A DNA stretch of 64,000 bases from positions 433 through 64,432 of the forward strand of contig NZ_JAUYGV010000008.1 of the NCBI RefSeq assembly GCF_030690345.1, written 5' to 3'. The translations under genes and the position numbers were made by a program. Shown piece after piece: positions 13,560 to 49,924 of the stretch. Every line of letters starts with the position of its first letter. The first letter of the stretch is position 1. The DNA is from Rheinheimera sp. (lineage in GTDB: Bacteria; Pseudomonadota; Gammaproteobacteria; Enterobacterales; Alteromonadaceae). The notes under the pieces were generated by a model that saw nothing but the letters and a program-made list of their open reading frames with translations, was not told the DNA's origin and did not search any database.

Positions 13560-16184
13560 ATGAGCCAGGCGGTAACCTACAGCAAAGCGCTTCCGGACAG
13601 TTACAGCCTGGAAGCTTATAAAAAGCATTTTGCTGACTTTCATGACTGGCTAAGCCGCAGCTTCTCGCAGCATCCGGTAAATGCGCTGGTAAAAGCCCGC
13701 GCCCGTTTTATTGACGATGTACTGGTGCAGCTGTGGCACAAGTACGAGTTACATAAAAGCAAAGACTTAAGCCTGATTGCAGTGGGCGGCTATGGCCGCG
13801 GCGAGTTGCATCCCTGCTCTGACATTGACTTGCTGCTACTGGCAGACGGCCGGTTATCCGCGGCACAACAAGAGGCGATCGCGCAATTTATTACCGTATT
13901 GTGGGATTTACGCCTTGAAGTTGGCCACAGTGTGCGCACGATAAAAGAATCGATAAAACTGGGCAAAGACGACATTACCATTGCCACTAACCTGTTAGAA
14001 ATGCGCCTGCTTACCGGTAATAAGCCGCTGTTTGAACAACTGCAATCAGACGTCAGCAAAGACAGCTTCTGGACCAGCCAGGCGTTTTTCCAAGCCAAAC
14101 GCCACGAGCAACAACAACGCCATGCCCAGTATCACGGCACGGCTTACAACCTCGAACCCAACTTAAAAGCCAACCCGGGTGGCCTGCGCGATATTCAAAC
14201 CATTGGCTGGGTGGCCAAACGGCATTTTCAAACCCGCACCATGCGCGAGCTGGTGGCCTACCAGTACCTGACCGAAGATGAATACCAGGAACTGATGGAA
14301 TGTGAAGCCTATTTATGGCAAATGCGCTTTGCACTGCACATAGAAGCCGGCCGTAACGAAAACCGTATTCTGTTTGACTACCAGCCGGCCGTGGCAGAAC
14401 GGCTGGGTTTTGGCGCCGACGGTAAAGCTTCGGTGGAACGGATGATGAAGCGGTTTTTCCGCACCGTACAGCGCGTAGCAGAGCTAAACGAAATGCTGTT
14501 GCAACACTTTGACGGCAGCATTTTAAACCACAAAGAAAAAGTGAAAACCCTGCTGCTGGATGACTACTTCGAGCTGCAGGGCCATTTGATCGCCGCCCGT
14601 GATAACGCGGTATTTGCCAGGCGCGATAACCTGCTGCGGCTGTTTTGGCATATTGCCAATAACTCTAATATTACCGGCGTACATTCCTCTACCATGCGGC
14701 TGATCCGTCAGGTGCGGCGGCGCTTAATGGGCGACTTACAGGACTATGAAGCCTGCCGCCAGCTGTTTTTAGCCATTATCCGCCATCCGCGCGGTATGGA
14801 TAAAGCCATTACCTTAATGCACCGCTATGGCGTACTGGCGGCTTACTTGCCGCAGTGGCGTAATATTGTCGGCCAGATGCAGTTTGATTTATTCCATGCT
14901 TACACCGTGGATGAACATACCCACCGTTTACTGAAAAACTTATACAAATACACGCTAAGCGAACATGAAAGTGAGTTTCCGCTGTGCAGCGATATCGTCA
15001 AAAAAATGGAAAAACCGGAGCTGTTGTATTTAGCCGGTATTTTTCATGATATCGCCAAAGGCCGCGGCGGCGATCACTCTGAGCTTGGTGCTATGGATGT
15101 GCGCGAATTTTCCAAGTTGCACAAACTCAGTGAGTTTGACAGCAAGCTGATTGCCTGGCTGGTCGAGCATCACCTGCTGATGTCAGTAACGGCGCAGCGC
15201 CGTGACATTCACGACCCGGCGGTAGTGGCGGAATTTGCCGAAAAAGTGCGCGACGAAACCCGGCTGAATTATCTGTACTGCTTAACCCTGGCCGATATCC
15301 GCGCCACTAACGACAATTTATGGAACGACTGGAAAGGCTCCTTACTGCGCGAGCTGTTTTTGGCCACGCAAAAAGCCTTTCGCCGCGGTTTGGAAAAACC
15401 AATGGATTTGCGCGACCTTATCCGCGAAAACCAAAGCGAAGCTATGCCACTGCTGCTAAAGCAAACCTTTAGTGAGAGTGAAATTTTGCAATTATGGAGC
15501 CGGATTAAAGCCGATTACTTTGCCCGCTACAGCGCGCGGCAAATTGCCTGGCACTGCGAGCATATTTTGCGGCATAAAAACCCGGACGAACCGCTGGTGC
15601 TGATCAGCAAAGCGCCCATCCGCGGTGGTACCCAGGTATTTATTTACACTAAAGATCAGCCCAAGCTATTTGCCCGGTTAGTGGCGGCGCTCGACAGCAA
15701 AAAAGTGAATATTTTCGATGCCCAAATTATGACCAACAAAGACGGTTATGCGATGGACACCTTTGTTATTCTGGAGCAAAACGGCGAGGCGGTAAATTCG
15801 CCATCACGCCAACAAAGCATTAAACGCGCGTTAGAGCTGTATATTCTGGACAAACCGGATTTATCGCGGCAAAAAACCAGGTTATCGCGCCAGATGCGCC
15901 AGTTTAACGTGCCGCCCAAGGTAGTGTTTTTACCCGGCAACACTGCCAGACGTACTATGGTGGAATTGGCCGCACTGGATACCCCGGGGCTGCTGGCCAA
16001 TATCGGCGAAGTATTTCAGCGCTGCGATGTGAATATTCATGCGGCTAAGATCACTACCATCGGCGAGCGGGCTGAAGACTTTTTTATGATTTCAAATAGC
16101 GACGAGCAGGCCCTGAGCAGCGAGCAGCAAAGCGCGCTGAAACGGGCACTGATCGAGCAACTATCACAGCAAACAGAAGGCTAA
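13560..16184 (+). CDS. glnD: bifunctional [protein-PII] uridylyltransferase/uridylyl-removing enzyme GlnD
   Basis: 874-aa ORF with a nucleotidyltransferase [17 protein letters not shown] motif, an HD domain ([15 protein letters not shown]) and two C-terminal ACT-like regions. Synteny map-glnD-dapD. Confidence 0.95.
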
Positions 16185-18365: not shown

Positions 18366-19229
18366 ATGAAAATCGAGCCCTGTGATTACCGCGTGCAACC
18401 CGGTGAGAACCTTGACCTGACACAGCGTCCAACCCATGTTGAGCCGGTTTATGACGACAAAAAGGACTACAAAAAGCTGTTGCGGGAACAGGTCGGTGAC
18501 CTCAGTGAGTTACAGCGGCTGCATTACGCGTCGAATAAATATGCTTTATTAATAATTTTTCAGGGCATGGATACTGCCGGCAAAGACAGCGCTATCCGGC
18601 ATGTGATGTCAGGCGTTAATCCACAGGGCTGCCAGGTATTTAGTTTTAAACAACCCAGTGCAGCAGAGCTGGAGCACGACTTCCTGTGGCGCACGGTCAA
18701 ACGCCTGCCAGAGCGGGGACGGATTGGCATATTTAACCGTTCTTACTACGAGGAAGTACTGGTAGTGCGGGTACACCCGGAGCTACTGAAGGCACAAGGT
18801 TTTGCCAACGATGTCCTCGCAGGGCAAACCATCTGGCAGCAGCGCTTTAAATCAATAACGGATCTGGAAGCGCATTTACACCTTAACGGTACCCGGGTGG
18901 TTAAGTTCTTTTTGCACTTGTCTAAACAGCAGCAGCGCGAGCGGCTTTTAGCCCGTATCGACGAGCCGGAGAAAAACTGGAAGTTTAGTGTCGCTGACAT
19001 AAAAGAACGCGGACACTGGGACGACTATATGCACGCCTATGAAGCTTGCCTTAGCGCCACCAGCACTGCTGCGTCACCTTGGTTTGTTATTCCGGCCGAT
19101 GATAAGAAAAATGCCAGGCTGATTATCTCGCAGATCGTCATCGACAGCTTACAAAACCTGGACATGCACTACCCAAAAGTCAGCGCGGCGCGGCGCCGGC
19201 AATTGCTAAAACTACGCGAGCAACTTTGA
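18366..19229 (+). CDS. polyphosphate kinase 2 (PPK2) family protein
   Basis: 287-aa ORF with a P-loop [13 protein letters not shown] and the FLWR...[23 protein letters not shown] signature of single-domain PPK2 enzymes. Confidence 0.85.
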
Positions 19230-19268: not shown

Positions 19269-19556
19269 TTACCGCGCCGAAAAATGTTGCTCAAGCCACG
19301 GCAACGCAATCGTCTCTGGCTCCAGCGTTTCGCCGGTGTCAATGCGCAGCATCGGCGCCAGTTCCGTACCCTGAATTTCCAGTAACAGCTCACGCAGCTG
19401 CTCTCCGGCACCGCAAAACGTATCGTAACTGCTATCACCCAAGGCAATGAACGCAAACTGTTTGCCGGTTAACAACGGAAAACGGCTTTGTACATCCAGA
19501 TAAAACGGCAACAGGTTGTCCGGAATATCACCCAGCCCAGTACCGAACTGTAGAGT
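19269..19556 (-). pseudogene. 5'-truncated fragment of a yqcA/mioC-type flavodoxin gene (diverged duplicate of 20651..~20950)
   Basis: The translation ...PFYLDVQSRFPLLTGKQFAFIALGDSSYDTFCGAGEQLRELLLEIQGTELAPMLRIDTGETLEPETIALPWLEQ matches residues ~70-145 of the intact 151-aa flavodoxin at 20651..21106. There is no N-terminal FMN-binding half, and homology decays with indels near 19540-19560. Confidence 0.85.
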
Positions 19557-19682
19557 TCAACCTGATACTTAACACCAACTCCGCGCAAAATACACAAACA
19601 AAACTTATTGACACAATATAAATTACAATATAACAATATTCCTGCATGATTAACATATTTAACTTAACGGAAAAACATAGAG

Positions 19683-19850
19683 ATGAAACCATTTAGTATA
19701 TTATTAGTTACATTACTCTTCTCTGCTTCAGCACTGTCACTACCGATGACATGTAAATGCACTTCGGGAAGTATGGTGGTAGAGGTTTCTGGAGGCACAA
19801 CTAAGATGAGCTGTTCAGGTGGCGGACGCGTTAGCTGCAGGATTGGATAA
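19683..19850 (+). CDS. candidate 55-aa secreted Cys/Gly-rich peptide (not in the ORF track, below its length cutoff)
   Basis: My translation is MKPFSILLVTLLFSASALSLPMTCKCTSGSMVVEVSGGTTKMSCSGGGRVSCRIG*. It has a Sec-type signal peptide (K2, hydrophobic core, ASA-like cleavage site) and a mature part with 4 Cys and many Gly/Ser. It is co-oriented with and 51 nt upstream of the 231-aa ORF, in AT-rich foreign-looking DNA. The SD is weak. Confidence 0.45.
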   Translation: MKPFSILLVTLLFSASALSLPMTCKCTSGSMVVEVSGGTTKMSCSGGGRVSCRIG

Positions 19851-19901
19851 GATAACTCAAGGGCTTTATTTACAAGCTCTTCTTCAAAAACAGAGCGGAT
19901 C

Positions 19902-20597
19902 ATGAAATTAAATATTAATGTATTGGTAGTTATAACTGTGATAATTGCAGCTTTATTTCTTTATAGCTTCGATGGCAATGTTGAGATACTAAACCAGCAC
20001 CCAGAGCAACAGGCAGCTTCACAGAATAATAAAACTACCGAAAGCGATGTCACACCGCCTATACAGCTTGCTACGCTGCACGATAAAGATGTTGCTCCGG
20101 AATCTGCAATACCTGATAGCGTTGAGCAACTACCCAGCTCAGATCCTGAAGCGATAGCGCACCGTAAAGCAATAATGTTTTTCAACAGCTCGGCATTTAA
20201 GTCTGCGGAAACCATAAACGCAGCGTATCTAAATCACGATGGTATTGTGTCACGAAATACATTGGAAATGTCATTTTCCAATAATGACTTTAACCAATTA
20301 GTAACTGTAATTAAAAACGCGGAAAAAAATTCAGCGAGCTTCGAATTAGAAACGACCTTAGAGCAACATTTACTCCGCACATTAAGCAGCAAAGTTTTTG
20401 ACGAAAGCTATTCTTGTGCAGGACGCGTTTGCGCCTTAACTTTCAAAGCAATTCAGCCAGAACAAAACGTTGAATCAGTCAAAGACTTTACAACAAGTTA
20501 TGCATTTACTAACATTAGCCAAGATGATACCGGTGCTTATATTTATAAAGCTATTTTTATTCAGACAACTGATCCCAGTAATTTGCAGATACAATAA
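19902..20597 (+). CDS. hypothetical membrane-anchored protein (N-terminal TM helix), no recognisable family
   Basis: 231-aa ORF whose N-terminus MKLNINVLVVITVIIAALFLY is a signal anchor. The gene is ~30-35% G+C, against ~53% in the flanks (hand counts of 60-nt lines). Confidence 0.65.
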   Translation: MKLNINVLVVITVIIAALFLYSFDGNVEILNQHPEQQAASQNNKTTESDVTPPIQLATLHDKDVAPESAIPDSVEQLPSSDPEAIAHRKAIMFFNSSAFKSAETINAAYLNHDGIVSRNTLEMSFSNNDFNQLVTVIKNAEKNSASFELETTLEQHLLRTLSSKVFDESYSCAGRVCALTFKAIQPEQNVESVKDFTTSYAFTNISQDDTGAYIYKAIFIQTTDPSNLQIQ

Positions 20598-20603
20598 AAC
20601 ACT

Positions 20604-20636
20604 GAAAGAACTTAATTAGCTTCATTAAGTTCTTCA
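20604..20636 (+). terminator. AT-rich hairpin closing the islet operon
   Basis: AAGAACTTAAT-tagcttc-ATTAAGTTCTT forms an 11-bp perfect stem just after the 231-aa ORF stop. There is no strong U tract, so termination efficiency is uncertain. Confidence 0.45.
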
Positions 20637-20650
20637 GCTTCTATCACACC

Positions 20651-21106
20651 TTACTTTTCGTCTTTGAGTGCAAACTTCTGCTCAAGCCACGGCAAAGCAA
20701 TCGTCTCCGGCTCCAGCGTTTCGCCGGCGTCAATGCGCAGCATCGGCGCCAGTTCCGTGCCCTGAATTTCCAGTAACAGCTCACGCAGCTGCTCACCGGC
20801 ACCGCAAAACGTATCGTAACTGCTATCACCCAAGGCAATGACCGCAAACTGTTTGCCGGTTAACAGCGGAAAGCGGCTTTGTACATCAAGGAAAAACGGC
20901 AGCAGGTTGTCCGGAATATCGCCCTGCCCGGTGGTAGAGCTTATCAGCAACCAGATATCAGCATTAAAGCTTAATACCTGATCCAGTTTTGCTTCCTCAT
21001 ACAGCGCCACCTCGTGTCCCAAGCCGGTTAATAACGGCTGCGCCTCTTCAGCAACGTATTGGGCAGCACCATATACGCTACCGACAATCAGGGCTATTTT
21101 TGCCAT
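20651..21106 (-). CDS. yqcA: FMN-binding flavodoxin (YqcA/MioC type)
   Basis: 151-aa ORF: IALIVGSVYGAAQYVAEE...SSTTGQGDIPDNL...IALGDSSYDTFCGAG... It is colinear with E. coli YqcA and adjacent to truC and yqcC, as in E. coli. Confidence 0.85.
   Translation of the reverse strand: MAKIALIVGSVYGAAQYVAEEAQPLLTGLGHEVALYEEAKLDQVLSFNADIWLLISSTTGQGDIPDNLLPFFLDVQSRFPLLTGKQFAVIALGDSSYDTFCGAGEQLRELLLEIQGTELAPMLRIDAGETLEPETIALPWLEQKFALKDEK
20679..20928. repeat. direct repeat copy B (inside intact yqcA) of the ~250-bp segment also present at 19288..19537
   Basis: Hand alignment at an offset of 1391 bp shows about 15 mismatches in ~250 nt (~94% identity). Confidence 0.85.
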
Positions 21107-40263: not shown

Positions 40264-40339
40264 TGGTGCCCAGACCCGGAATCGAACCAGGGACACGCGG
40301 ATTTTCAATCCGCTGCTCTACCGACTGAGCTATCTGGGC
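40264..40339 (-). tRNA. tRNA-Phe (GAA)
   Basis: Hand-folded cloverleaf: acceptor GCCCAGA/TCTGGGC, D stem GCTC/GAGC, anticodon stem GCGGA/TCCGC with loop TTGAAAA, T arm CCTGG-TTCGATT-CCGGG, encoded CCA. Near-identical layout to E. coli tRNA-Phe. Confidence 0.97.
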
Positions 40340-40356
40340 AAAACTGTGACGCTAAA

Positions 40357-40432
<76 letters not shown>

Positions 40433-40496
40433 TGCGACAACATGGAAAAAGTTATTTAAGTTTGATACTTTACAACAACTTTAGCACCGAAATTAA

Positions 40497-40572
40497 TGGT
40501 GCCCAGACCCGGAATCGAACCAGGGACACGCGGATTTTCAATCCGCTGCTCTACCGACTGAGCTATCTGGGC
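40497..40572 (-). tRNA. tRNA-Phe (GAA), identical copy
   Basis: Sequence identical to 40264..40339 by direct comparison. Confidence 0.97.
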
Positions 40573-40801: not shown

Positions 40802-43561
40802 ATGGAAAATACGTCGTTTAGTAAACCGATTTTTAAACGCCTGGCTTTATTGTCAGTACTACTGTTGTTAGTCCAGGCTGCGCTGTTACTGCTATGGCAT
40901 AAACCTGAACCGGGCCTGGTTAATAAACAACTGGAACGGCTGGCTGCCGATACCCGGTTGGTTGGCCGCGTAGTGCAACCTTTACTGCGCCGAAACGATT
41001 ACAGTGCTATAGAACAAATATTGGCGCAGGCACGCGATGGCAACACTGACAGAGCAATGTACCTGTATCGTACTACCGAAAGTAACGAGACAGAACTGAT
41101 CGCCAACACCAACAACGTACAGGGCTTTGTACCACAGCCGGCATGGCAGGAAACCGCAGTGCAGCAACCGGGCTATCTGGTAGTACATCACCTTATAAAC
41201 GTTGGCCAGCAAAAAGCCTTACTGGTGTATGTACAGCAATTAACAATTAAACCGCTGTGGCCTTACGCAGCTATTTTTGCCATTAGTTTGGTAATAGGCC
41301 TGTTGCTCAGCGGCTTTTTTGCCTCTGCTATTTCCGGCTTTTTCAGCCGCCGTATTAAGCCTTTATTGCAGGGCACTAAACTGGCACTGGATAAAAATCA
41401 ATTTAACAGCAGCCTCGACAGCCACGCGCGTGACAGCTACGGCACCCTTGGCAGTTATATTAACCAGTTATTTCGCAAAATTGAGGCTGCACAACAAGGC
41501 CTTGCCGAATCAGAGCAAAATATTAAAACGCTGAAGCAGGAAGTAGACACGCGAATTAAAGAGCGCACCGACGCACTGGAAACGGCAAAACTGACAGCGG
41601 AAAAGGCCAATGAAGCCAAATCTACCTTCCTGGCTACCATGAGCCACGAAATACGCACGCCAATGAACGGCATTATCGGCACTATCGATTTACTGCGTAA
41701 AACCCAGCTGTCTACCTCGCAATTTCGTATGACAGATACCGTACGGGAGTCGTCATTCTCGCTGCTGCGCATTTTAGACGACATTCTGGATTTCTCTAAA
41801 ATTGAAGCCGGTAAGCTGGAACTGGAAACCATACCGCTGTCGTTGGTGGAAATTATTGAAGCGGTAGGCCGTATTCTGGTGTCAGTAGCGTATCAGCGCC
41901 AAATCGATTTAAAGCTGTTTATCGACCCGCGCATTCCGGATGGCCTGGTTGGCGACCCTGTGCGGTTACGGCAAATTCTGTATAACCTGGCCGGCAATGC
42001 GATTAAATTTACCCAAACCACACCGGAAACCACCGGTCTGGTGGTAATAAAAGCTGAACTGCTGGAAGAGAATATGGACTTCAGCCAAATTCAGTTCAGT
42101 ATTATCGACAACGGCAAAGGCATGACGCAGCGCCAAATAAGCTATGTGTTCCAACCATTTAACCAGGCCGAAGGTTCCATTACGCGTAAATTTGGCGGCA
42201 CCGGACTGGGCTTGTCTATTTGCCAGCGCTTAACCACGCTGATGTACGGCGACATTAATGTGGTCAGTGAAGTTGATAAAGGTACCGAATTTAAAGTACG
42301 GGTGCCGATGCGCCGCTCAGACGAAATTCATTATCTGGATAAAGAGCTGTTACGCGATATTCATCTGTGCCTGTTTACTACAGATGCGCATAACCGGGCG
42401 CACTTACAAGCGTACTTTGCTTATGCCGGTGCCGAACTTAGCACAGAGCACAGCTTTGAAGCACTGCAGGCCAGAGCCGCTGCGATGAAGCCGCTACCGC
42501 CCAAGCAAGCCGCTGTCTGGGTACTGGATGCTACCTATGAGCAAATTTCTGCGAATGAAATTGACCTGCTGCAACAAACGCCGGGCATGAGTCAGGTACA
42601 GTTTGTTGTCATTACCAATCAGGTGGAGTTATCTGAGCGTAGTAATGACAAAATCTATTATCTGCACAGCTCACCTATTTGCCGCAGCCATTTATACGAT
42701 GCGGTGTTAATTGCGGCTAAACGTAAAGCTAAACCGGTGTACGCCGGTGAGAAAACCCCGACCGCCGCAGCGCCGTCGATTGAACAAGCACGTAAACAAC
42801 GCCGCCTGGTGTTACTGGCCGAAGACAATCTGATGAACCAACGGGTGATTGTCGACCAATTAAACGCCCTTGGCTATGCGGTAGAAGTCGCCGACGATGG
42901 CGCTATCGCGCTGGAAAAATGGCGCCGCTATCACTACCCGTTGCTGTTGACTGATCTGCATATGCCCAATATGAGCGGCTATGACCTGGCAAGCGCAATA
43001 CGTAAAGAAAGCCTGCACCTGAGCGAAGGCGCTGAGTTTACCCGCATTGTCGCTGTAACTGCCAATGCTCTCAAAGGTGAAGAGCAAAAGTGCCTGAGTA
43101 TTGGTATGGACGGTTATATTACTAAACCGATTGAGCTGGCCACGCTGGAACTGATGTTAGCGCGCTGGCTACCGCACCCGCAAAGCGGTAAAAAAGCAGT
43201 GCCGGTAAGTGGCGATAATGGCCAGAATAACTCACCGATTTGTTTTACCACCATCGCCAATTTCCTTGGCAATGACCCGGCCAAACACGAAGAATACCTG
43301 AATTACTTTGTCAAACATGCTGCTGAACTGCTAACCAACCTGAGCAACAGTGCAGAGCAACAAGATCGCAGTACCGCGCGCTCTATAGCACATCAGTTTA
43401 AATCAGTGGCAAAAAGCGTCGGCGCCCTCAGTTTATCCGCTGATGCAGCGAAGCTGGAAAAAGCCGCAGAAGAAAGCGATTGGTCAGTTATCAACGAGTA
43501 TATCCGTCAAATGCAGGAGAAATATCAGGAAGTGGTAAGCTACGTGAAGCAGCGTTACTAA
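40802..43561 (+). CDS. hybrid sensor histidine kinase/response regulator with C-terminal Hpt domain
   Basis: 919-aa ORF with two TM helices flanking a ~130-aa periplasmic region, HisKA ([15 protein letters not shown]), HATPase_c (N-box [12 protein letters not shown]-boxes DNGKGM and GGTGLGLSI), a receiver ([10 protein letters not shown]...[16 protein letters not shown]...TANA...KP) and Hpt-like [12 protein letters not shown]. Confidence 0.9.
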
Positions 43562-43563
43562 GT
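43493..43563. repeat. direct repeat copy 1 (last 22 codons + stop of the hybrid kinase gene), repeated at 46396..46466
   Basis: Hand alignment at an offset of 2903 bp gives 66/71 identical. All 5 differences are synonymous third-codon positions. Confidence 0.9.
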
Positions 43564-43576
43564 CGCCTCATTGATT

Positions 43577-43600
43577 AACCGGAGCCTTAAGGCTCCGGTT
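43577..43600. terminator. perfect 10-bp palindromic hairpin between the convergent kinase and lipoprotein genes
   Basis: AACCGGAGCC-ttaa-GGCTCCGGTT. There is no U tract on either side, so terminator function is uncertain. Confidence 0.45.
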
Positions 43601-43613
43601 ACACTTGTGCTAA

Positions 43614-46244
43614 TCAGAACGTTGTATATTGTGCTTTGCTTGGTTTAAGCACTTTACGTACTACTTTTTTCACATTAAAAGTCTGGGTGCTAAGCGCATT
43701 TTGCGGTGCGGTATCATTCCAGTATTCGTAGTCAATCTCTTCATACATACCAATACGACCAGCAATTATCAAGGCGCCTTCACGGAATGACTCTTCCCGA
43801 ACATACAAACGCCGTCCCAACAGACCATCTTCCATTTTTAACACTGTCCATTCACGCTGTTGCTGTAAAGGCTCGTAGAATAATGTCATACCGTTATCGC
43901 CATTGAGCTGCCAGGTTAATGGTGGCGTGTTCACTTTCGGGTCAAATGCCGGTGGAAAATCTGTTAACGGAAATGGGGAAATTACCCTGTTACCGCTATT
44001 GTCAGCGTTCAGTTGCCAACCAAAAAACTGTGAAAAGACGTTTTCTGTGTCACTGCAATCAGGATCCGCCGGACAAAATAATAACCGGCCGTTATCCCAA
44101 CTTTCTTTAGTCCAGGAGTTAATCATCGTTTGCCAATATTGTTCTTCAGCATTGGCCAGCAAGCTTGCATCAACACCAGCATCGGTTTTAAAGGCATACT
44201 CTGCCTCAGCCGCAATAATGTTGTCGTCTGTATCATAGACCGTAGTAAACACCTGCAAGTCTGTACCGGACTGGTCAATAATTTCCAGTTTAACAGCAGT
44301 GCCATCTGATATTGTAAGGAATAGCTGGCCATCAGTTACCTGCCAATTGAAGGTTCTGTCAGTGGCAGTTCCTAAACCGGTACCATCGGCATTAAACAGC
44401 AGTGGGTCCAGGTAGAAATTAGTTAAATCTCCGCCTTGAAACGGCAGGTTTTGCGTATAGTAGGTATTTATCGCCCAAGTTCCGGCCATTTGTTCTGCAT
44501 CAAAAGCTAACTCTGAGTTACTCTGCTTACGCATTAAAACATTGCTGCTAAATTCAATCGTATCTGATGCTTCAACTAAGCCCTGACTCGTTTGCACAGG
44601 TACCACTTCACGCCGTTGTATACCTGCCTGACGATATGTATCAATTAGTTGGCCTTGTGTAACTCTGGATAACTCAACCGAATCGATATAATACATAACT
44701 GCAACCTGAGAAATATTATCCGTAGTTAACCAATCTACCTGTTGTTGAGTCAGGCCTGCAGCTCCAACTGCCACACCGACAAAACTGGTGAAACTTGAAG
44801 CTGCATTAATATAATCAATGCTGATTTTGCCATTTATCAGTTCCCATTCAAAAGTAGATTCACCGCTACTGATTGCATGTAAACCTGTGCCGTCCTCATT
44901 AAACTGCCAACGCTCACCACCGCGGGATAAAAAGCCCGGCGCAGCAGCGTAAGTGCGAAAGTACAATGGTGCAATTGCATCGGCGGTTACCGGCGGAGTT
45001 AATGTCGGATCTGCCACGATGGCTGCGATGGTATCTTCAATCAAGCTCGGCTGTTCTGCTTCAATTTGCGTAACCAAAGCATTGTAAGCGCCAACATTCG
45101 CCAGTAGCGCTACTATATCTGTAGTACCGTCCGGCAGAGCAATATCCGGGTTGTCAGTAAGAATCTTTACAACAGCTGCAGCCTCGGCCAATTCATCAGC
45201 ATCAATAGATTTTTCTACGAAGGTTAGATCATTGATATTTGCCGGCACCACTCCGTTATTGGCACTAACTAGTAAAGAGTACAACGCGGTGGATACAGCT
45301 GTTACCGAAACAGTGTTAGAGCCATCTGCTGCCACACTGACTTGAGTATCTGCAGGCTTGCTTTTTACGGAAGCGACAGAAACTACTTCAGCCACGGTAA
45401 AACCGGAATAGACAGCATTGTATTTTAAGCGAGTGTTGGCAACTGATGTCACCTCAACAACTACTACGCTATCAGTAAGGTCATCATCTAATTCCAGCTC
45501 AATTACAAAGGCACCATTTTCGTCTACTACAGCAGTTGCCGGCAGCGCCGCGCCGCTCAAAACAGCCTCAGCACCACTGAAATCAGCACCACTAACCTGC
45601 CCCTCCAGCGTAAACGCTACCAATGCAGGCGCAATATCGACCACTAACTCTAATTCGGCAGTTTCATCATCATCATCTGTCACCGTTAACATAAAGCTAA
45701 GCGAAGTAAGCTCTGTAACCGCTGGTGTAGTGAAACTAACCGTATCAGTGTCGCTTCCGGTCAAGGCTACAGTTGGCCCTGCTGTTTGCAGCCAACTAAC
45801 AGCAGTAATCTCGCCGTCATCAGTAAGCGGGGCTGTTAATGAGATGTCTGCTTTTTCGGCTATCGCATCAGGTTCACCACTTAACTGCGGCAGGAGGTTA
45901 TTTAAAAGAGTAACAGTGACATCATCCGTTGCCGTCTGCCCTTTGGCGTCGGTTACCGATAGCCTTAACACAGCGGCACTGTCAACATCTACCGATGGGG
46001 CAGTTATCGTCGGCGACAACGTATCCAGGGCTGAAAAGATCACGTCGGGCCCTGACATCTGAGACCAGCTAACCGTCAATTCGCCCTCACCGCTGGCAGA
46101 ACTGCCGCTGATTTGCACTGAGCGTCGCTCTTTCAGACTAACGTCTGCGCCGGCATTTGCCACGGCATCATCGTCAGATGAACAGCCTCCTAACAAAACA
46201 CCTGCGACAAGCACTGCTGCCACTTTTTTACGCCATACAGCCAT
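43614..46244 (-). CDS. large surface/periplasmic lipoprotein with two N-terminal PKD/Ig-like repeats, function unknown
   Basis: 876-aa ORF with a lipobox LLGGCSSDDD and two ~95-aa repeats (VSWSQMSGPDV...LSVTDAKGQTATDDVTVTL / VSWLQTAGPTV...LTVTDDDDETAELELVV). Recurring later modules have the form F/W-x-F-N-x-DGTG...F-x-W-x-(V/L)-x-x-G. Confidence 0.8.
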   Translation of the reverse strand: MAVWRKKVAAVLVAGVLLGGCSSDDDAVANAGADVSLKERRSVQISGSSASGEGELTVSWSQMSGPDVIFSALDTLSPTITAPSVDVDSAAVLRLSVTDAKGQTATDDVTVTLLNNLLPQLSGEPDAIAEKADISLTAPLTDDGEITAVSWLQTAGPTVALTGSDTDTVSFTTPAVTELTSLSFMLTVTDDDDETAELELVVDIAPALVAFTLEGQVSGADFSGAEAVLSGAALPATAVVDENGAFVIELELDDDLTDSVVVVEVTSVANTRLKYNAVYSGFTVAEVVSVASVKSKPADTQVSVAADGSNTVSVTAVSTALYSLLVSANNGVVPANINDLTFVEKSIDADELAEAAAVVKILTDNPDIALPDGTTDIVALLANVGAYNALVTQIEAEQPSLIEDTIAAIVADPTLTPPVTADAIAPLYFRTYAAAPGFLSRGGERWQFNEDGTGLHAISSGESTFEWELINGKISIDYINAASSFTSFVGVAVGAAGLTQQQVDWLTTDNISQVAVMYYIDSVELSRVTQGQLIDTYRQAGIQRREVVPVQTSQGLVEASDTIEFSSNVLMRKQSNSELAFDAEQMAGTWAINTYYTQNLPFQGGDLTNFYLDPLLFNADGTGLGTATDRTFNWQVTDGQLFLTISDGTAVKLEIIDQSGTDLQVFTTVYDTDDNIIAAEAEYAFKTDAGVDASLLANAEEQYWQTMINSWTKESWDNGRLLFCPADPDCSDTENVFSQFFGWQLNADNSGNRVISPFPLTDFPPAFDPKVNTPPLTWQLNGDNGMTLFYEPLQQQREWTVLKMEDGLLGRRLYVREESFREGALIIAGRIGMYEEIDYEYWNDTAPQNALSTQTFNVKKVVRKVLKPSKAQYTTF

Positions 46245-46395
46245 AATAACTATCCTTATATTCGTCTAATCCACATGGATAAAACGCTTACATTCAGCAA
46301 AAATTCATAATCAACTATACCTGCAACTTGATAAACAGCCGAGGACATTCATTTATAGCGGATAATTTGCAGCAAAAGATGAGTAAAAAAGAAAT

Positions 46396-46464
46396 AACGA
46401 ATATATCCGTCAAATGCAGGAAAAATACCAGGAAGTGGTGAGTTACGTGAAGCAGCGTTACTAA
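46396..46464 (+). pseudogene. orphan 3' fragment (22 codons + stop) of a hybrid-kinase allele
   Basis: Translates to [22 protein letters not shown], identical to the kinase C-terminus, with 5 synonymous nucleotide differences. There is no upstream coding continuity. It is followed by a strong terminator. Confidence 0.85.
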
Positions 46465-46481
46465 GTTGTATTGCGCAGTTT

Positions 46482-46508
46482 AAAACGCCGGCGCAAAGCC
46501 GGCGTTTT
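46482..46508. terminator. bidirectional intrinsic terminator (kinase-fragment side / endonuclease gene side)
   Basis: AAAA-CGCCGGC-gcaaa-GCCGGCG-TTTT. Confidence 0.82.
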
Positions 46509-46513
46509 ACATT

Positions 46514-48121
46514 TTAATTGCCCCAAATGGCGCTGACAAATTGCGGGTGATCAATAAAAGGGTTACGGTTACCCTGATATTGATAAGCTGCGTCGTTACG
46601 ATCGCGCTCTTTCTGGCTGACCGGATCCTGCTGATGCCACTGCTTTAACAGCTGCAACAGCCAGCTTTCAAATACCTGAGTGGTGCTGCCATTTAGCGCT
46701 GCGTTGGCTTCACTGCTGTTGTTCTGCCAGTTAGCCAACTGGTGCTGATAACGCGTTGCCATATAAAAATATGCCCGCGCCACATCGCCTTTAAACTCAT
46801 CAATCGGCTCAAACACCACACCACTGTAGCCGGTGCCCGCAGCGGCATTGCCTAGTTTGCTACCATTGGTTGAGGTAAAACTTGCACTGCCTACTTCACC
46901 AAACGGATAACTGCCGCGTTTAGCATTAACGTAACCGTCGGTGGCGAATATATGGTGGATATCCGAGTTCATCGGCTCTATTGCACCACCAAACCAACTG
47001 CGCGGAAAGCTGTGCTCACGGTTATAGCAATCGGCCTCGCTGTTATAGCTGCCACACTGATCACTGCCGGCGGCATAGACATAGCTATCGCTTGCCGATG
47101 GTTTTTCGGAGTAAATATCTAAAATGGAACCGTCGTTCTCATAGTAGTTATCCAGCTCGTAAACATTATAAAAGCCCCAAATTGCGCTGTAGCCCTGCGC
47201 CGTATGGGTTTTAATAATGTTATGCAGTGCGGTTTTCAGGTTGTAGCCGGTTAAGCCGGCAGCATCTGCATAATAACTGCCTAAATCGCCGCCACCGCCC
47301 GTGCTGCCCAACGTAAAGCTATGGCTTTGCTGGCTGGCAAAAGCGCCGCCACTAAACACCGGTTGACCGCCTAAGGTCAGGCTATAGCTGCCATTACCAT
47401 AGCTGCAACAAATACCATCACCGTAGCTGTCGAAAATGGTAAAGGTGTAGTCCCCATCCGCCAGGCACCACTGTTCAGTGTAACTGCTGCTGGCGGCATA
47501 GCCATCGCCGCTGTACACAGTACCGCTGACATTTGCTACCAACTGCCAGCTGGTTTCAGCACCATAGTTGTCGGTGTTAAGTTCAAAGTCTGCGCTGGTA
47601 TTAGCACAGCCGGTCGGCGGTGGTGCCTGAGTTGTGGCCGGTTCAAACTGATCAACATACACCAGCTCTGCACCATCAAAACCGCTGACATCATAAAAGC
47701 GCAGACCAATTTCGATATTACCGCTGCTGGCAGCGGTATAGCTGTAACTCAGCGTTTGCCACTGTCCGGTTAGTTGCTCATTGGAGTAGCCCTGATAACC
47801 GTTAACATATAGCCGGGCTCTGACATTGCCCTCCGTATGATATACCGCGGTACTGAAGTTATAGGTTTGGCCGGCCGTAACGCTGACCAGTTGGCGAAAA
47901 TCGGTATTGGCCTGATCGGTAGTATTAACGCTAATGGCCGCGGCGCTGCTGCCGCTCAGTTTAGTATTGCCTGATTGGCTCAACGTAATACCGCTGTCAA
48001 TCAGGCTCCAGCTATCCGGCTGATTGCCTGTCCACTGCTCAAAACCGCCGTTAAGTACAGTAGCCTGTGCCGCTATACTGAGGGTAGCAAGCAGACCCGA
48101 CAAGATCGTAATTTTTCTCAT
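46514..48121 (-). CDS. secreted endonuclease I family nuclease fused to N-terminal CBM-like and Cys-rich domains
   Basis: 535-aa ORF with a signal peptide and an N-terminal jelly-roll-like region (VLNGGFEQW...). A middle module carries DSYGDGICCSYGNGSY. The C-terminal Endonuclease_1 motifs are YNREHSFPRSWFGG, DIHHIFATDGYVNAKRGSYPFG, KGDVARAYFYMATRY and GNRNPFIDHP. Confidence 0.85.
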   Translation of the reverse strand: MRKITILSGLLATLSIAAQATVLNGGFEQWTGNQPDSWSLIDSGITLSQSGNTKLSGSSAAAISVNTTDQANTDFRQLVSVTAGQTYNFSTAVYHTEGNVRARLYVNGYQGYSNEQLTGQWQTLSYSYTAASSGNIEIGLRFYDVSGFDGAELVYVDQFEPATTQAPPPTGCANTSADFELNTDNYGAETSWQLVANVSGTVYSGDGYAASSSYTEQWCLADGDYTFTIFDSYGDGICCSYGNGSYSLTLGGQPVFSGGAFASQQSHSFTLGSTGGGGDLGSYYADAAGLTGYNLKTALHNIIKTHTAQGYSAIWGFYNVYELDNYYENDGSILDIYSEKPSASDSYVYAAGSDQCGSYNSEADCYNREHSFPRSWFGGAIEPMNSDIHHIFATDGYVNAKRGSYPFGEVGSASFTSTNGSKLGNAAAGTGYSGVVFEPIDEFKGDVARAYFYMATRYQHQLANWQNNSSEANAALNGSTTQVFESWLLQLLKQWHQQDPVSQKERDRNDAAYQYQGNRNPFIDHPQFVSAIWGN

Positions 48122-48235: not shown

Positions 48236-48263
48236 AATAAAAAAGGGCAGCACAAGGCTGCCC
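48236..48263 (-). terminator. intrinsic terminator downstream of aceA
   Basis: Minus strand GGGCAGC-cttgt-GCTGCCC followed by TTTTTTATT. Confidence 0.8.
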
Positions 48264-48328: not shown

Positions 48329-49924
48329 TTAAAACTGATTCATGGTGTTATGCGTACCACCGGCTTTCAGTGCGGCTTCACCGGAGAAATATTCTTTATG
48401 GTCATCGCCCACATCTGAGCCGGACATGTTCTGGTGTTTAACGCAGGCAATACCCTGGCGAATTTCTTTGCGTTGTACACCTTCTACATAACCCAGCATA
48501 CCGGCAGCACCAAAGTACTCTTTGGCCAGGTTGTCGGTAGACAGCGCCGCCGTATGATAAGTAGGCAGGGTGATCAGGTGATGGAAGATACCGGCTTCAC
48601 GCGCCGCATCGGCCTGGAAGGTACGAATACGGTTATCGGCTTCCAACGCCAGTTCTGTCGCATCGTAATCGGCACTCATCAGCAGCGCCCGATCATAGAC
48701 CGACACATCTTTACCGGCTGTTTTCCAGGCATCAAATACCTGCTGGCGGAAATTCAGTGTCCAGTTAAAGCTTGGGCTGTTGTTGTACACCAGCTTGGCA
48801 TTGGGTACCACTTCACGAATGCGGTTTACCATCTCCGCTATCTGGCCAACGTGCGGTTTTTCCGTTTCAATCCACAGTAAATCCGCACCGTGCTGCAGTG
48901 ACGTAATACAATCCAGTACTACCCGGTCAACACCACTGCCCGGTTTAAACTGAAACAAACCACTGGCTAAGCGTTTTGGTTTTAACAGCTTACCGTTGGC
49001 TTTTACTACCACATCGCCGTTGGCAATATCGTCCGCACCGCTGATTACGTCACCGTCTAAGAAGCTGTTGTATAAATCACCCAAGTCACCAGGCGCGTTA
49101 GTGACCGCAATTTGTTTGGTTAACCCGGCGCCTAAGGAGTCGGTGCGGGCGACGATAATACCGTCATCCACGCCCAGTTCTAAAAAGGCGTAACGCACAG
49201 CGTTAATTTTCGCCAAAAAGTCAGCGTGTGGCACGGTAACCTTACCGTCCTGGTGACCACATTGTTTTTCATCCGACACCTGGTTTTCAATCTGAATAGC
49301 ACAAGCACCGGCTTCAATCATTTTCTTCGCCAGTAAATAGGTGGCTTCTTCGTTACCAAAGCCGGCGTCGATATCAGCAATAATCGGCACAACATGGGTT
49401 TCAAAGTTATCAATTTTGCTTTGTACCGCTACGGCTTTGCTGCTGTCGCCGGCAGCTTTGGCGGCATCCAGTTCACGGAACAAGCCGCCTAACTCACGGG
49501 CATCGGCTTGCTTTAAAAAGGTATACAGCTCTTCGATTAAAGCCGGCACCGCCGTTTTCTCGTGCATCGATTGATCCGGCAACGGACCAAACTCAGAACG
49601 CAGCGCCGCTATCATCCAGCCGGACAAATACAGGTATTTACGTTTGGTAGTGCCGAAATGTTTCTTGATAGCGATCAGTTTTTGCTGACCAACGAAGCCA
49701 TGCCAGCAACCTAACGATTGCGTGTATTGGCTGCTGTCAGCATCATAGGCTGCCATATCAGCGCGCATAATTTTGGCGGTATATTTGGCAATGTCCAGCC
49801 CGGTATGAAAACGGTTCTGCGCCCGCATTCTGGCGGCAGACTCAGGGTTTATTGCACTCCATGCGTCGCCGTTTTGCTGGCGTAACTGCGCGATTTGTTG
49901 TATTGCATCTTGGTAAGCTGACAT
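48329..49924 (-). CDS. aceA: isocitrate lyase (long ~530-aa type)
   Basis: 531-aa ORF with the catalytic-loop signature QCGHQDGKV (KxCGH type), IENQVSDEK, and the general layout of Pseudomonas/Colwellia-type ICL. Confidence 0.93.
   Translation of the reverse strand: MSAYQDAIQQIAQLRQQNGDAWSAINPESAARMRAQNRFHTGLDIAKYTAKIMRADMAAYDADSSQYTQSLGCWHGFVGQQKLIAIKKHFGTTKRKYLYLSGWMIAALRSEFGPLPDQSMHEKTAVPALIEELYTFLKQADARELGGLFRELDAAKAAGDSSKAVAVQSKIDNFETHVVPIIADIDAGFGNEEATYLLAKKMIEAGACAIQIENQVSDEKQCGHQDGKVTVPHADFLAKINAVRYAFLELGVDDGIIVARTDSLGAGLTKQIAVTNAPGDLGDLYNSFLDGDVISGADDIANGDVVVKANGKLLKPKRLASGLFQFKPGSGVDRVVLDCITSLQHGADLLWIETEKPHVGQIAEMVNRIREVVPNAKLVYNNSPSFNWTLNFRQQVFDAWKTAGKDVSVYDRALLMSADYDATELALEADNRIRTFQADAAREAGIFHHLITLPTYHTAALSTDNLAKEYFGAAGMLGYVEGVQRKEIRQGIACVKHQNMSGSDVGDDHKEYFSGEAALKAGGTHNTMNQF

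Follow-up and report, generated by a model that had tools for sequence, protein, structure and literature searches.

An orphan histidine kinase gene end in Rheinheimera as a probable scar of the integrase-free merger of two locus versions

In a 64,000-nt stretch of the genome of Rheinheimera sp. (contig NZ_JAUYGV010000008.1, positions 433 to 64,432 of the forward strand, assembly GCF_030690345.1; hereafter the window, with positions counted from its first letter), the 3′ end of a gene for a hybrid sensor histidine kinase is present twice: once in the intact gene, and once as an orphan copy of 71 nt on the far side of a gene for a large predicted lipoprotein (LIPO). We consider it likely, with a probability of about 0.8, that this orphan tail is a recombination scar that has no function of its own, left behind when two versions of the locus, one carrying LIPO and the other a gene for a predicted endonuclease (ENDO), were merged without an integrase. 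The locus is a natural footprint of a known process, and neither a new mobile element nor a new enzyme. The scar lies in ordinary genes rather than in toxin loci. The locus extends to the gene for isocitrate lyase (ICL) and contains the following features.

40802-43561, + strand: hybrid sensor histidine kinase, BarA-like, 919 aa, with HisKA, HATPase_c, receiver and Hpt domains (Pfam and NCBIfam matches)
43493-43563, + strand: repeat copy 1, comprising the last 22 kinase codons (Hpt domain end), the stop codon and 2 nt (alignment)
43576-43601, no strand: perfect 26-nt palindromic hairpin, CCGGAGCC..GGCTCCGG, without a U tract, between the convergent kinase and LIPO genes
43614-46244, – strand: LIPO, an 876-aa predicted lipoprotein with K319L-like PKD domains (Pfam match; lipobox LLGGC)
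46245-46395, no strand: AT-rich LIPO upstream region, 151 nt, 31.8% G+C, ending at the non-homologous junction 46395/46396
46396-46466, + strand: repeat copy 2, the orphan kinase tail of 22 codons, stop codon and 2 nt (alignment)
46481-46509, no strand: bidirectional hairpin of the intrinsic-terminator type, including a T tract, common to the former kinase end and ENDO (terminator scan and fold)
46514-48121, – strand: ENDO, 535 aa, with an endonuclease I domain and a CBM domain (Pfam match)
48245-48263, no strand: ICL terminator hairpin GGGCAGC..GCTGCCC, the conserved right boundary of a variable site
48329-49924, – strand: ICL (NCBIfam PRK06498, 1053 bits), the conserved right flank of that site

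The two copies of the kinase tail (43493-43563 and 46396-46466) align without a gap at an offset of 2903 nt and agree at 66 of 71 nt, the GT after the stop codon included; over the coding part, 64 of 69 nt agree. All five mismatches (repeat positions 6, 27, 33, 45 and 48) are third-codon and synonymous, and the intact kinase end and the orphan tail encode the same 22 residues. A sequence-only reading of the window had reported this identity and its five synonymous differences, and the alignment reproduces both. Also confirmed is the layout it described, in which the terminator follows the orphan and the repeats enclose a hairpin without a U tract, the 876-aa lipoprotein gene on the opposite strand and its AT-rich upstream DNA. 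Identity does not extend beyond the repeat: no nucleotide before its left end matches, and on the right only the GT behind the stop codon does. Runs of 20 and 23 identical nt lie inside the repeat, and the blastn self-match has an E-value of 5e-23. If five substitutions fell at random in the 66-nt coding stretch, the probability of all being synonymous would be 4e-5 to 8e-4, a range set by transition bias. LIPO is the sole long open reading frame (ORF) between the repeats.

The duplication is not an assembly artefact, since the same arrangement is found in two other sources. In an independent Logan contig (L082) the kinase, LIPO and ENDO products are 100% identical to those of the window over the regions aligned by tblastn, and the gene order is the same; the genome of Rheinheimera sp. 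NSM (L001) also has the arrangement of the window. The orphan tail carries no start codon, and a TAA lies in its frame four codons upstream. The possibility that it is translated as a small ORF was considered and rejected, because this TAA closes the frame and an ATG at 46379 is out of frame and opens an ORF of just 20 codons.

To place the repeat in context, the window proteins were mapped onto Rheinheimera loci fetched with the kinase, about 25 genomes overall (loci are denoted here by L numbers). The kinase gene is the conserved left flank of a variable site: its orthologues occupy the same locus in about 25 Rheinheimera genomes, and the window protein is 97% identical to that of Rheinheimera sp. 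NSM, 95% to that of R. lutimaris (L018) and 79-85% to those of about twenty other species. On the right, ICL shows 94-99% amino acid identity across the Rheinheimera loci save L036 (89.8%). The interval from the kinase stop codon to the ICL terminator is a variable cassette site that holds ENDO, or LIPO together with REG (a gene for a regulator of ~290 aa with a winged-helix N-terminus, ToxR-like), or nothing. ENDO alone is found in ten genomes (L003, L005, L006, L007, L009, L013, L014, L015, L019 and L021), and a scan of metagenomes added one more ENDO-type locus, L088. LIPO with REG is found in five (L002, L004, L011, L016 and L017), with L080 as an additional case, and LIPO alone in one (L010); the locus L008 is cut off inside LIPO. 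The site is empty in three genomes (L012, L018 and L036) and rearranged in one. The composite order of LIPO, orphan tail and ENDO occurs in the window and L001 only, while LIPO stands at the same site without any repeat in seven genomes (L002, L004, L010, L011, L016, L017 and L080). The boundaries of the site are fixed, lying directly after the kinase stop codon on the left and at the ICL terminator hairpin on the right; with small variants, this hairpin is at the same place in the window and eleven relatives of the ENDO, LIPO and empty types, and also in L011, L016 and L017.

The window locus can be divided into two parts, each colinear with one of these locus types. On the intact side, the kinase end, the CCGGAGC..GCTCCGG hairpin and the 3′ end of LIPO are colinear with the LIPO-type loci L002, L004, L008 and L080 (and with L001). 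The palindrome at 43576-43601 has fold energies of –21.6 and –22.5 kcal/mol (z about –4), and a CCGGAGC hairpin follows the kinase gene in the LIPO-type loci L001, L002, L004, L008 and L080 too. On the orphan side, the colinear counterpart is found in ENDO-type genomes: their kinase 3′ end, terminator and ENDO correspond to the orphan tail, the AACGCCGGC terminator and the 3′ end of ENDO in the window. Window positions 46395-46600, for instance, align with 12694-12900 of L003, and the onset of homology is always at 46392-46396. The terminator at 46481-46509 has fold energies of –22.1 (+ strand) and –20.4 kcal/mol (– strand), and comparable AACGCC(A/G)GC hairpins are found right after the kinase stop codon in ENDO-type genomes. 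Because colinearity holds on both sides, the window locus is a LIPO-type segment (from the kinase to the LIPO upstream region) fused to an ENDO-type segment (from kinase codons 898-919 to ICL).

The two ends of the repeat differ in kind. Its right end, 2 nt past the stop codon, is exactly the point at which LIPO-type and ENDO-type loci cease to be homologous. Homologous recombination predicts a repeat that ends at the limit of homology, so the right boundary fits recombination. At the left end, 46395/46396, the junction is non-homologous, and intergenic DNA from upstream of LIPO abuts kinase codon 898. The LIPO upstream region measures 151 nt in the window and 156 nt in L080, where the stop codon of REG follows; a search for a REG remnant in the window found none. 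Compared with L080, the closest LIPO-type locus, which is not the parent, the junction reads AAAACAATAAG followed by TTAC in L080 and AAAAGAAATAAC followed by GAAT in the window, and at most 2-3 nt could be shared. REG is absent relative to LIPO-type loci, which would amount to a deletion only in the case of a LIPO-type recipient. In the NSM genome the orphan is preceded by the same sequence (30 of 30 nt match), and the breakpoint is that of the window. The identical junction indicates that the merger had a single origin, before the window and NSM lineages split.

No domain of an integrase, recombinase or transposase was found in the islet between the kinase-tail repeats or in the ORFs at 17.5-29, 33-40 and 46-62 kb. 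Taken together with the colinearities, this supports the proposal of the sequence-only reading that DNA of a related lineage was joined by an integrase-free, homology-driven event that left an orphan 3′ end beside its native terminator. We envisage a merger of two versions of the locus, one LIPO-type and one ENDO-type, that came from closely related strains and met in the common ancestor of the window strain and NSM. At one end ordinary homologous recombination would have taken place in the kinase gene or in ICL, the flanks that both versions share; at the other, the LIPO upstream end, at the position of the REG stop codon, would have been joined without homology to codon 898 of the kinase gene of the ENDO-type parent. 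The outcome would be the order seen today, namely kinase, hairpin, LIPO, 22-codon tail, terminator and ENDO, with REG absent and the kinase intact. Since then the orphan would have drifted, visibly so in NSM, while the intact gene end would have exchanged alleles by homologous recombination. In principle, the direct repeats could delete LIPO again.

What the comparison shows directly are the colinearities, the junction in common with NSM, the lack of recombinase genes, the decaying orphan and the empty sites; from these we infer the pathway of recombination, the direction of the import and the way the DNA came into the cell. Two pathways would fit. One is homology-facilitated illegitimate recombination (HFIR) of a linear fragment; the other is a Campbell-type single crossover of a fragment that had previously been circularised by an illegitimate join. 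Each would combine a homologous with an illegitimate step. The Campbell-type circular intermediate of the sequence-only reading thus stands as one of two fitting mechanisms, and by sequence it is not distinguishable from HFIR. At 71 nt, the homology would make a poor substrate for RecA.

The import could have gone in either direction: LIPO with the kinase 3′ end could have entered an ENDO-type genome, or ENDO with the stranded tail could have entered a LIPO-type genome, REG being deleted in the process. That LIPO is the imported cargo, as had been claimed, is therefore not established, the second direction fitting equally well. Several observations speak for ENDO as the import. Divergence of LIPO scales with that of the kinase (8% and 3%, respectively, against NSM; 20% and 7% against L080), which suggests that LIPO may have been inherited vertically. 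ENDO is nearer to its counterparts in L009 and L019 than the kinase is (85% vs 80%), and ICL is half of the L009 type, which suggests that ENDO and part of ICL may have come from elsewhere. The junction, moreover, falls precisely where REG is lacking. In favour of LIPO as the import are a lineage-specific CAA codon in the orphan (see below) and the analogy with a second islet in the window, at yqcA, where the orphan is clearly the native copy. G+C content is uninformative on direction, since the G+C content at third codon positions (GC3) of LIPO is ~42% in every genome.

Recombination has also left its mark on the flanks of the site. Among positions that separate L009/L019 from L018/L080, ICL (48329-49800) sides with the two groups at 47:51 and the kinase at 102:327, so that the flanks of the cassette site differ in ancestry. 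The hairpin and the last ~30 LIPO codons (43562-43700) exist in two allele types, with the window like L004 and NSM like L002 and L080, and window-NSM identity falls there to 75-77%, compared with ~92% elsewhere. This indicates a later homologous replacement at the same gene end, and recombination at the site is ongoing, with the intact kinase end continuing to exchange alleles. Within the kinase gene, positions 43000-43400 show 95-96% identity to R. lutimaris (L018), compared with ~74-92% in the remaining gene (sliding identity against L018 and L080); the patch has the appearance of a recent recombination tract. We considered it as the import tract of the merger and set it aside as not diagnostic; nothing else stood out in the sliding-identity scan.

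The fate of the orphan was followed by comparing the window with NSM, which share ~92% nucleotide identity in the region with a synonymous divergence (dS) of 0.32-0.49 (five genes). The NSM orphan has acquired four amino acid replacements and is therefore decaying, with no constraint at the protein level. Only position 6 separates intact from orphan copies in both genomes, with G in both intact copies and A in both orphans. At positions 27, 45 and 48 the differing states are those of the intact copy of the window, which are common to L080, and at 45 and 48 also to L002. Position 33 is a derived change peculiar to the window orphan. Most of the differences thus sit in the functional copy or at sites polymorphic among functional alleles, where none but synonymous states can occur. 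The synonymous-only pattern shows that the differences were filtered by selection, and it does not require a parental divergence of 7%. A further codon, CAA for Gln901, is present in both copies of the window and in the NSM copies; it was found in none of 7 other aligned kinase alleles and in none of 22 other Rheinheimera kinase ends. It follows from this shared codon that the parents were very close relatives with different cassettes, or that the copies were homogenised by gene conversion. The earlier conclusion that purely synonymous divergence implies separately evolved alleles is weakened by this comparison: one position separates the copies in both genomes, and the shared CAA speaks for very close parents or for homogenised copies.

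Several points weigh against the merger as we describe it. No parental genome was found among the relatives searched; the closest LIPO-type relative, L080, has a LIPO of only 80% identity, and the closest ENDO proteins reach 85% (L009 and L019). A metagenome scan with ENDO for a near-parental relative carrying ENDO only found none, the best matches being 83% (L087, in a different context) and 73% (L088, ENDO-type), and an exact-protein look-up of ICL returned no record, hence no conspecific genomes by that route. The shared CAA demands near-conspecific parents that nevertheless carried different cassettes, or homogenisation of the copies. The window orphan, with no nonsynonymous and about one derived change, is cleaner than neutral decay predicts, and it differs from the NSM orphan at 8 positions, where ~18 are expected under neutral drift. 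A literature search on transformation or DNA uptake in Rheinheimera returned nothing relevant. The good preservation of the orphan could be due to constraint on it as part of the DNA upstream of LIPO, to gene conversion by the intact copy, or to homologous recombination at a later time. The adjacent LIPO upstream region (46245-46395) is the same in NSM at 147 of 151 nt (97%), despite the dS of 0.32-0.49 in flanking genes, and is probably a constrained promoter or regulatory region. REG, the cognate regulator gene that stands next to LIPO in other species, is absent beside LIPO in the window.

A second islet in the window, at the flavodoxin gene yqcA, has the same topology. Its order is PPK2 (+), an orphan 3′ part of yqcA (–), 1.1 kb of cargo and the intact yqcA (–), with the following features.

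19269-19541, – strand: orphan 3′ part of yqcA (flavodoxin), with the native-type tail ..QHFSAR*, colinear with empty-site relatives
19542-20650, + strand: cargo, a small ORF and a 231-aa ORFan, then a hairpin before the yqcA stop codon (ORF reading)
20651-21106, – strand: intact yqcA, 151 aa, with the tail ..QKFALKDEK* (domain matches, alignment)

The sequence-only reading had recognised this likeness, which is borne out. An empty site exists at yqcA in three relatives (L083, L084 and L086), in which PPK2 is followed directly by a 148-aa yqcA and then truC. Two of the 148-aa YqcA proteins end in ..QQFSAR* and one in ..QQFSTQ*, and the orphan with its flank is colinear with the PPK2-yqcA junction of all three. 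By this comparison the orphan is clearly the native copy, and the cargo arrived with a foreign yqcA end. Over 87 codons the two yqcA copies differ by 11 synonymous and 5 nonsynonymous codon differences; at least three of the replacements are specific to the orphan and affect residues conserved in all relatives (e.g. TGQGD to TGLGD), so this orphan, too, is decaying. The shared identity of ~93%, which the sequence-only reading had pointed out, is no evidence for a common donor of both islets, as part of the divergence in both orphans is decay after the join. The repeats are of different length (71 nt at the kinase, ~273 nt at yqcA), and by eye the junctions of the two islets have no evident motif in common, an observation made without an alignment or motif search.

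The cargo of the yqcA islet has 38% G+C, compared with 49% for the window. Its ORFs lie at 19684-19851 (the small one) and 19902-20597 (the 231-aa ORFan). The small ORF reads, by eye, like a signal peptide. A search of 5.8 billion proteins found only three homologues of the ORFan, with identities of 100%, 76% and 54%, all on metagenomic contigs of at most 1.4 kb. Close relatives of the neighbouring PPK2-family ADP-polyphosphate phosphotransferase gene (18366-19229) are few: it has five matches at 86-94%, one at 82%, one in R. gaetbuli at 80% and one in Marinobacterium at 79%; from this pattern, the PPK2 gene itself may be accessory in Rheinheimera.

The window contains three non-trivial direct repeats: the kinase-tail pair, the yqcA pair (19281-19541 and 20672-20932, 93% identity) and two identical tRNA-Phe genes. 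Self-comparison of the window by blastn and tblastx for further orphan gene tails returned only the two known pairs. In ~765 kb of related loci, self-comparison found no orphan gene tails besides the NSM copy, the remaining repeats being tRNA arrays and a few short intergenic repeats. With no further orphan tails in the window or in these loci, there is so far no sign of a dedicated high-frequency mechanism. Nor is there any indication that gene 3′ ends are targeted, as had been proposed: joins that duplicate a gene tail are simply those that remain harmless as well as visible.

Some side observations concern these repeats and the cassette. The tRNA-Phe genes, 100% identical, belong to a tRNA-Phe/tRNA-Thr/tRNA-Phe cluster on the – strand (40264-40572), just upstream of the kinase. 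Its counterpart in R. lutimaris (L018 8764-9774) is a tandem array with a period of ~233 nt, at least four units and 98-99% identity. The same locus carries an intergenic 98-nt direct repeat of 82% identity (2721-2817 and 3705-3802) that brackets a 189-aa ORF and may be another small repeat-flanked islet or a dispersed intergenic repeat. The LIPO ORF begins with the lipoprotein signal MAVWRKKVAAVLVAGVLLGGC. In the window its GC3 is 41%, compared with 52-54% in flanking genes, and in five of six genomes (L001, L002, L004, L010, L011 and L080) it is ~41-42% against flanks of 50-56%; the exception is L010, in which the flanking genes are as low as LIPO (41-43%). The GC3 of REG is 42%, as measured in L080 alone. 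From this composition, the LIPO/REG cassette looks like an old, compositionally distinct accessory module that moves within the genus. In R. baltica (L010) just 213 nt (15442-15654) separate LIPO from the ICL terminator; as LIPO has neither REG nor ENDO beside it there, REG was lost independently at this site.

We weighed four other explanations against the merger. The islet could be a small integrative element, intact, decayed or mobilised in trans, that inserted site-specifically into the kinase 3′ end and carried a replacement gene end, its repeats being attL and attR. Its topology (intact gene, cargo, displaced 3′ end) is that of islands that target 3′ ends, the identical runs of 20 and 23 nt in the repeats would be compatible with it, and direct-repeat islands that lack an integrase and are excised by host functions exist, H47 being an example (PMC5426353). 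We nevertheless regard this as most unlikely: there is no integrase or recombinase gene in or around the islet, at least seven other species have LIPO at this very site without the repeat, oriented alike and accompanied by the same hairpin, and the orphan is colinear with a whole alternative version of the locus. The right boundary of the repeat is merely the point where homology of the two locus types ends, and the islets have repeats of unequal length and, by eye, no evident junction motif in common. Very unlikely, in our judgement, is that both copies are native and that LIPO was inserted by two illegitimate joins or a replication-fork accident which duplicated 71 bp in the manner of a long target-site duplication. 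This would account for the lineage-specific CAA in both copies and for a single position separating them in both genomes, as the copies may have been nearly identical at the origin. It needs a coincidence, however, to place the left join within 2 nt of the stop codon, at the limit of homology, and the spacer after copy 1 (TAAGTCG...) continues like that of the LIPO-type L004 (TGAGTCG...), from which it follows that the kinase end came in together with LIPO as a single colinear stretch. In the yqcA islet, furthermore, the intact gene has a foreign C-terminal tail, so that the tail on the cargo side is no copy of the native one.

We find it barely credible that the composite of LIPO and ENDO is ancestral and that the other locus types arose from it by deletion, partly between the repeats. 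Recombination between the 71-nt repeats would indeed restore exactly the ENDO-only order, and the site does lose genes, as seen in the empty loci and in L010 without REG. Yet the composite is found in only two close genomes (~92% nucleotide identity) of about 25, and the origin of the tail duplication would be left unaccounted for; LIPO-type genomes have REG, no orphan and no ENDO remnant that we could see, and the orphan holds codon states specific to the window/NSM lineage. It is, finally, improbable to a high degree that the orphan is kept for a function, be it within the regulatory region of LIPO, in the context of the terminator or as a homology tag through which LIPO could be lost and regained. 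The lack of nonsynonymous change in the window orphan, the 8 rather than ~18 differences between orphans and the 97% conservation of the adjacent 151 nt at a dS of ~0.35 point that way. Against it stand the four replacements in NSM, which speak against constraint on a protein, the upstream TAA and missing start codon, and the decay of the yqcA orphan; intergenic DNA, besides, is often more conserved than synonymous sites. Such a function would in any case be an addition to an account of the origin of the tail and no substitute for it.

The merger of two locus versions, which we prefer, can be extended to a bolder reading, in which stranded tails are the trace of a routine, integrase-free gain of cassettes in Rheinheimera, and perhaps in other aquatic gammaproteobacteria, with the gene 3′ end serving as a homology 'address'. 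We think this unlikely. If true, cassettes would circulate with the 3′ end of a neighbouring gene, possibly in circular form, and would dock at convergent gene ends, reversibly by way of the repeats; two scars in 64 kb would translate into dozens per genome, and a well-kept orphan would be a maintained address tag. The merger matters without this extension. Homologous recombination on one side coupled to an illegitimate join on the other is well documented in the laboratory. In nature it has mostly been deduced from toxin loci, and there selection in favour of new toxin tips is a confounding factor. The footprint in the window lies in ordinary genes, for a sensor kinase and a flavodoxin. With both parental locus types and a sister genome with the same junction at hand, the event can be followed at single-base resolution and the orphan's decay can be dated. 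The locus also suggests that a site where cassettes are cleanly replaced can occasionally stack two of them, and it provides a signature for counting such events genome-wide, namely an orphan fragment from the 3′ end of a gene, lying 1-5 kb downstream of the intact gene.

Among known systems, the cassette site itself resembles the 'minimal mobile elements' of Neisseria, variable cassette sites between conserved genes whose contents are exchanged through flanking homology. As in these elements, conserved flanks, here kinase and ICL, surround alternative unrelated cassettes, and there are no mobility genes. The clean double crossover of minimal mobile elements leaves no scar, whereas here one crossover was illegitimate, and the cassettes stand in tandem with a stranded tail between them. 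The term 'minimal mobile element' itself appears in PMC3082526 and PMC1538595.

The event that formed the composite is closest to HFIR, which has been described in natural transformation of Acinetobacter baylyi, Streptococcus pneumoniae and Pseudomonas stutzeri (de Vries & Wackernagel 2002; Prudhomme et al. 2002; Meier & Wackernagel 2003, as cited in PMC5361080 and PMC3240628). According to the accounts given in these two citing papers, HFIR yields insertions of ~1 kb with 3-10 bp of microhomology at the joint and usually deletes recipient DNA (PMC3240628; PMC5361080). The window has in common with it one homologous anchor and one non-homologous join, with homology to a donor-type locus continuous on one side and a joint without extended homology on the other; kilobase-scale DNA beside a conserved gene; and an insert that encodes no recombinase. 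It departs from it in that laboratory HFIR, as summarised there, usually deletes recipient DNA of similar size (PMC3240628), while here, depending on direction, there is a 71-nt duplication or a deletion of REG. A Campbell-type crossover has its own precedent in E. coli conjugation, where single crossovers of truncated circular DNA left gene-end duplications of 109-950 bp in 56 of 60 clones (PMC3240628). The window shows the same topology, an insert between two direct copies of a partial gene end (71 nt at the kinase, ~273 nt at yqcA); a circular intermediate would be hypothetical here, and the donor/recipient chimerism predicted for both copies would have just five differences in which to show.

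Orphan gene ends of a related kind are known from toxin loci. Displacement of the C-terminal tips of rhs genes leaves strings of orphan tips, silent and decaying, each of which starts by repeating the upstream core, and circular intermediates have been proposed for it (Jackson et al. 2009, PMC2935791); HFIR has been proposed for arrays of orphan immunity genes in type VI secretion system (T6SS) clusters of Vibrio (Kirchberger et al. 2017, PMC5361080). In the rhs, contact-dependent inhibition (CDI) and T6SS cases, as in the window, an incoming 3′ end with a downstream gene displaces the resident end, which persists as a silent decaying orphan with a repeat. The tips there are different toxins with their immunity genes, and the change of function is selected. 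The cargo in the window is a lipoprotein or a nuclease and no immunity gene, and both kinase tails encode the same 22 Hpt-domain residues of a housekeeping-type sensor kinase, so that the tail, like that of the flavodoxin in the yqcA islet, is a passenger and not the payload. Islands that encode an integrase, occupy the 3′ ends of tRNA or protein genes and restore these genes, as well as the integrase-free H47 (PMC5426353), share with the window the direct repeats of the target-gene 3′ end on both sides of the insert and the intactness of the gene. What sets the window apart is that the kinase islet has no tyrosine or serine recombinase gene in it or beside it and no att-like core in common with the yqcA islet, and that its cargo, LIPO, is found in other genomes without repeats.

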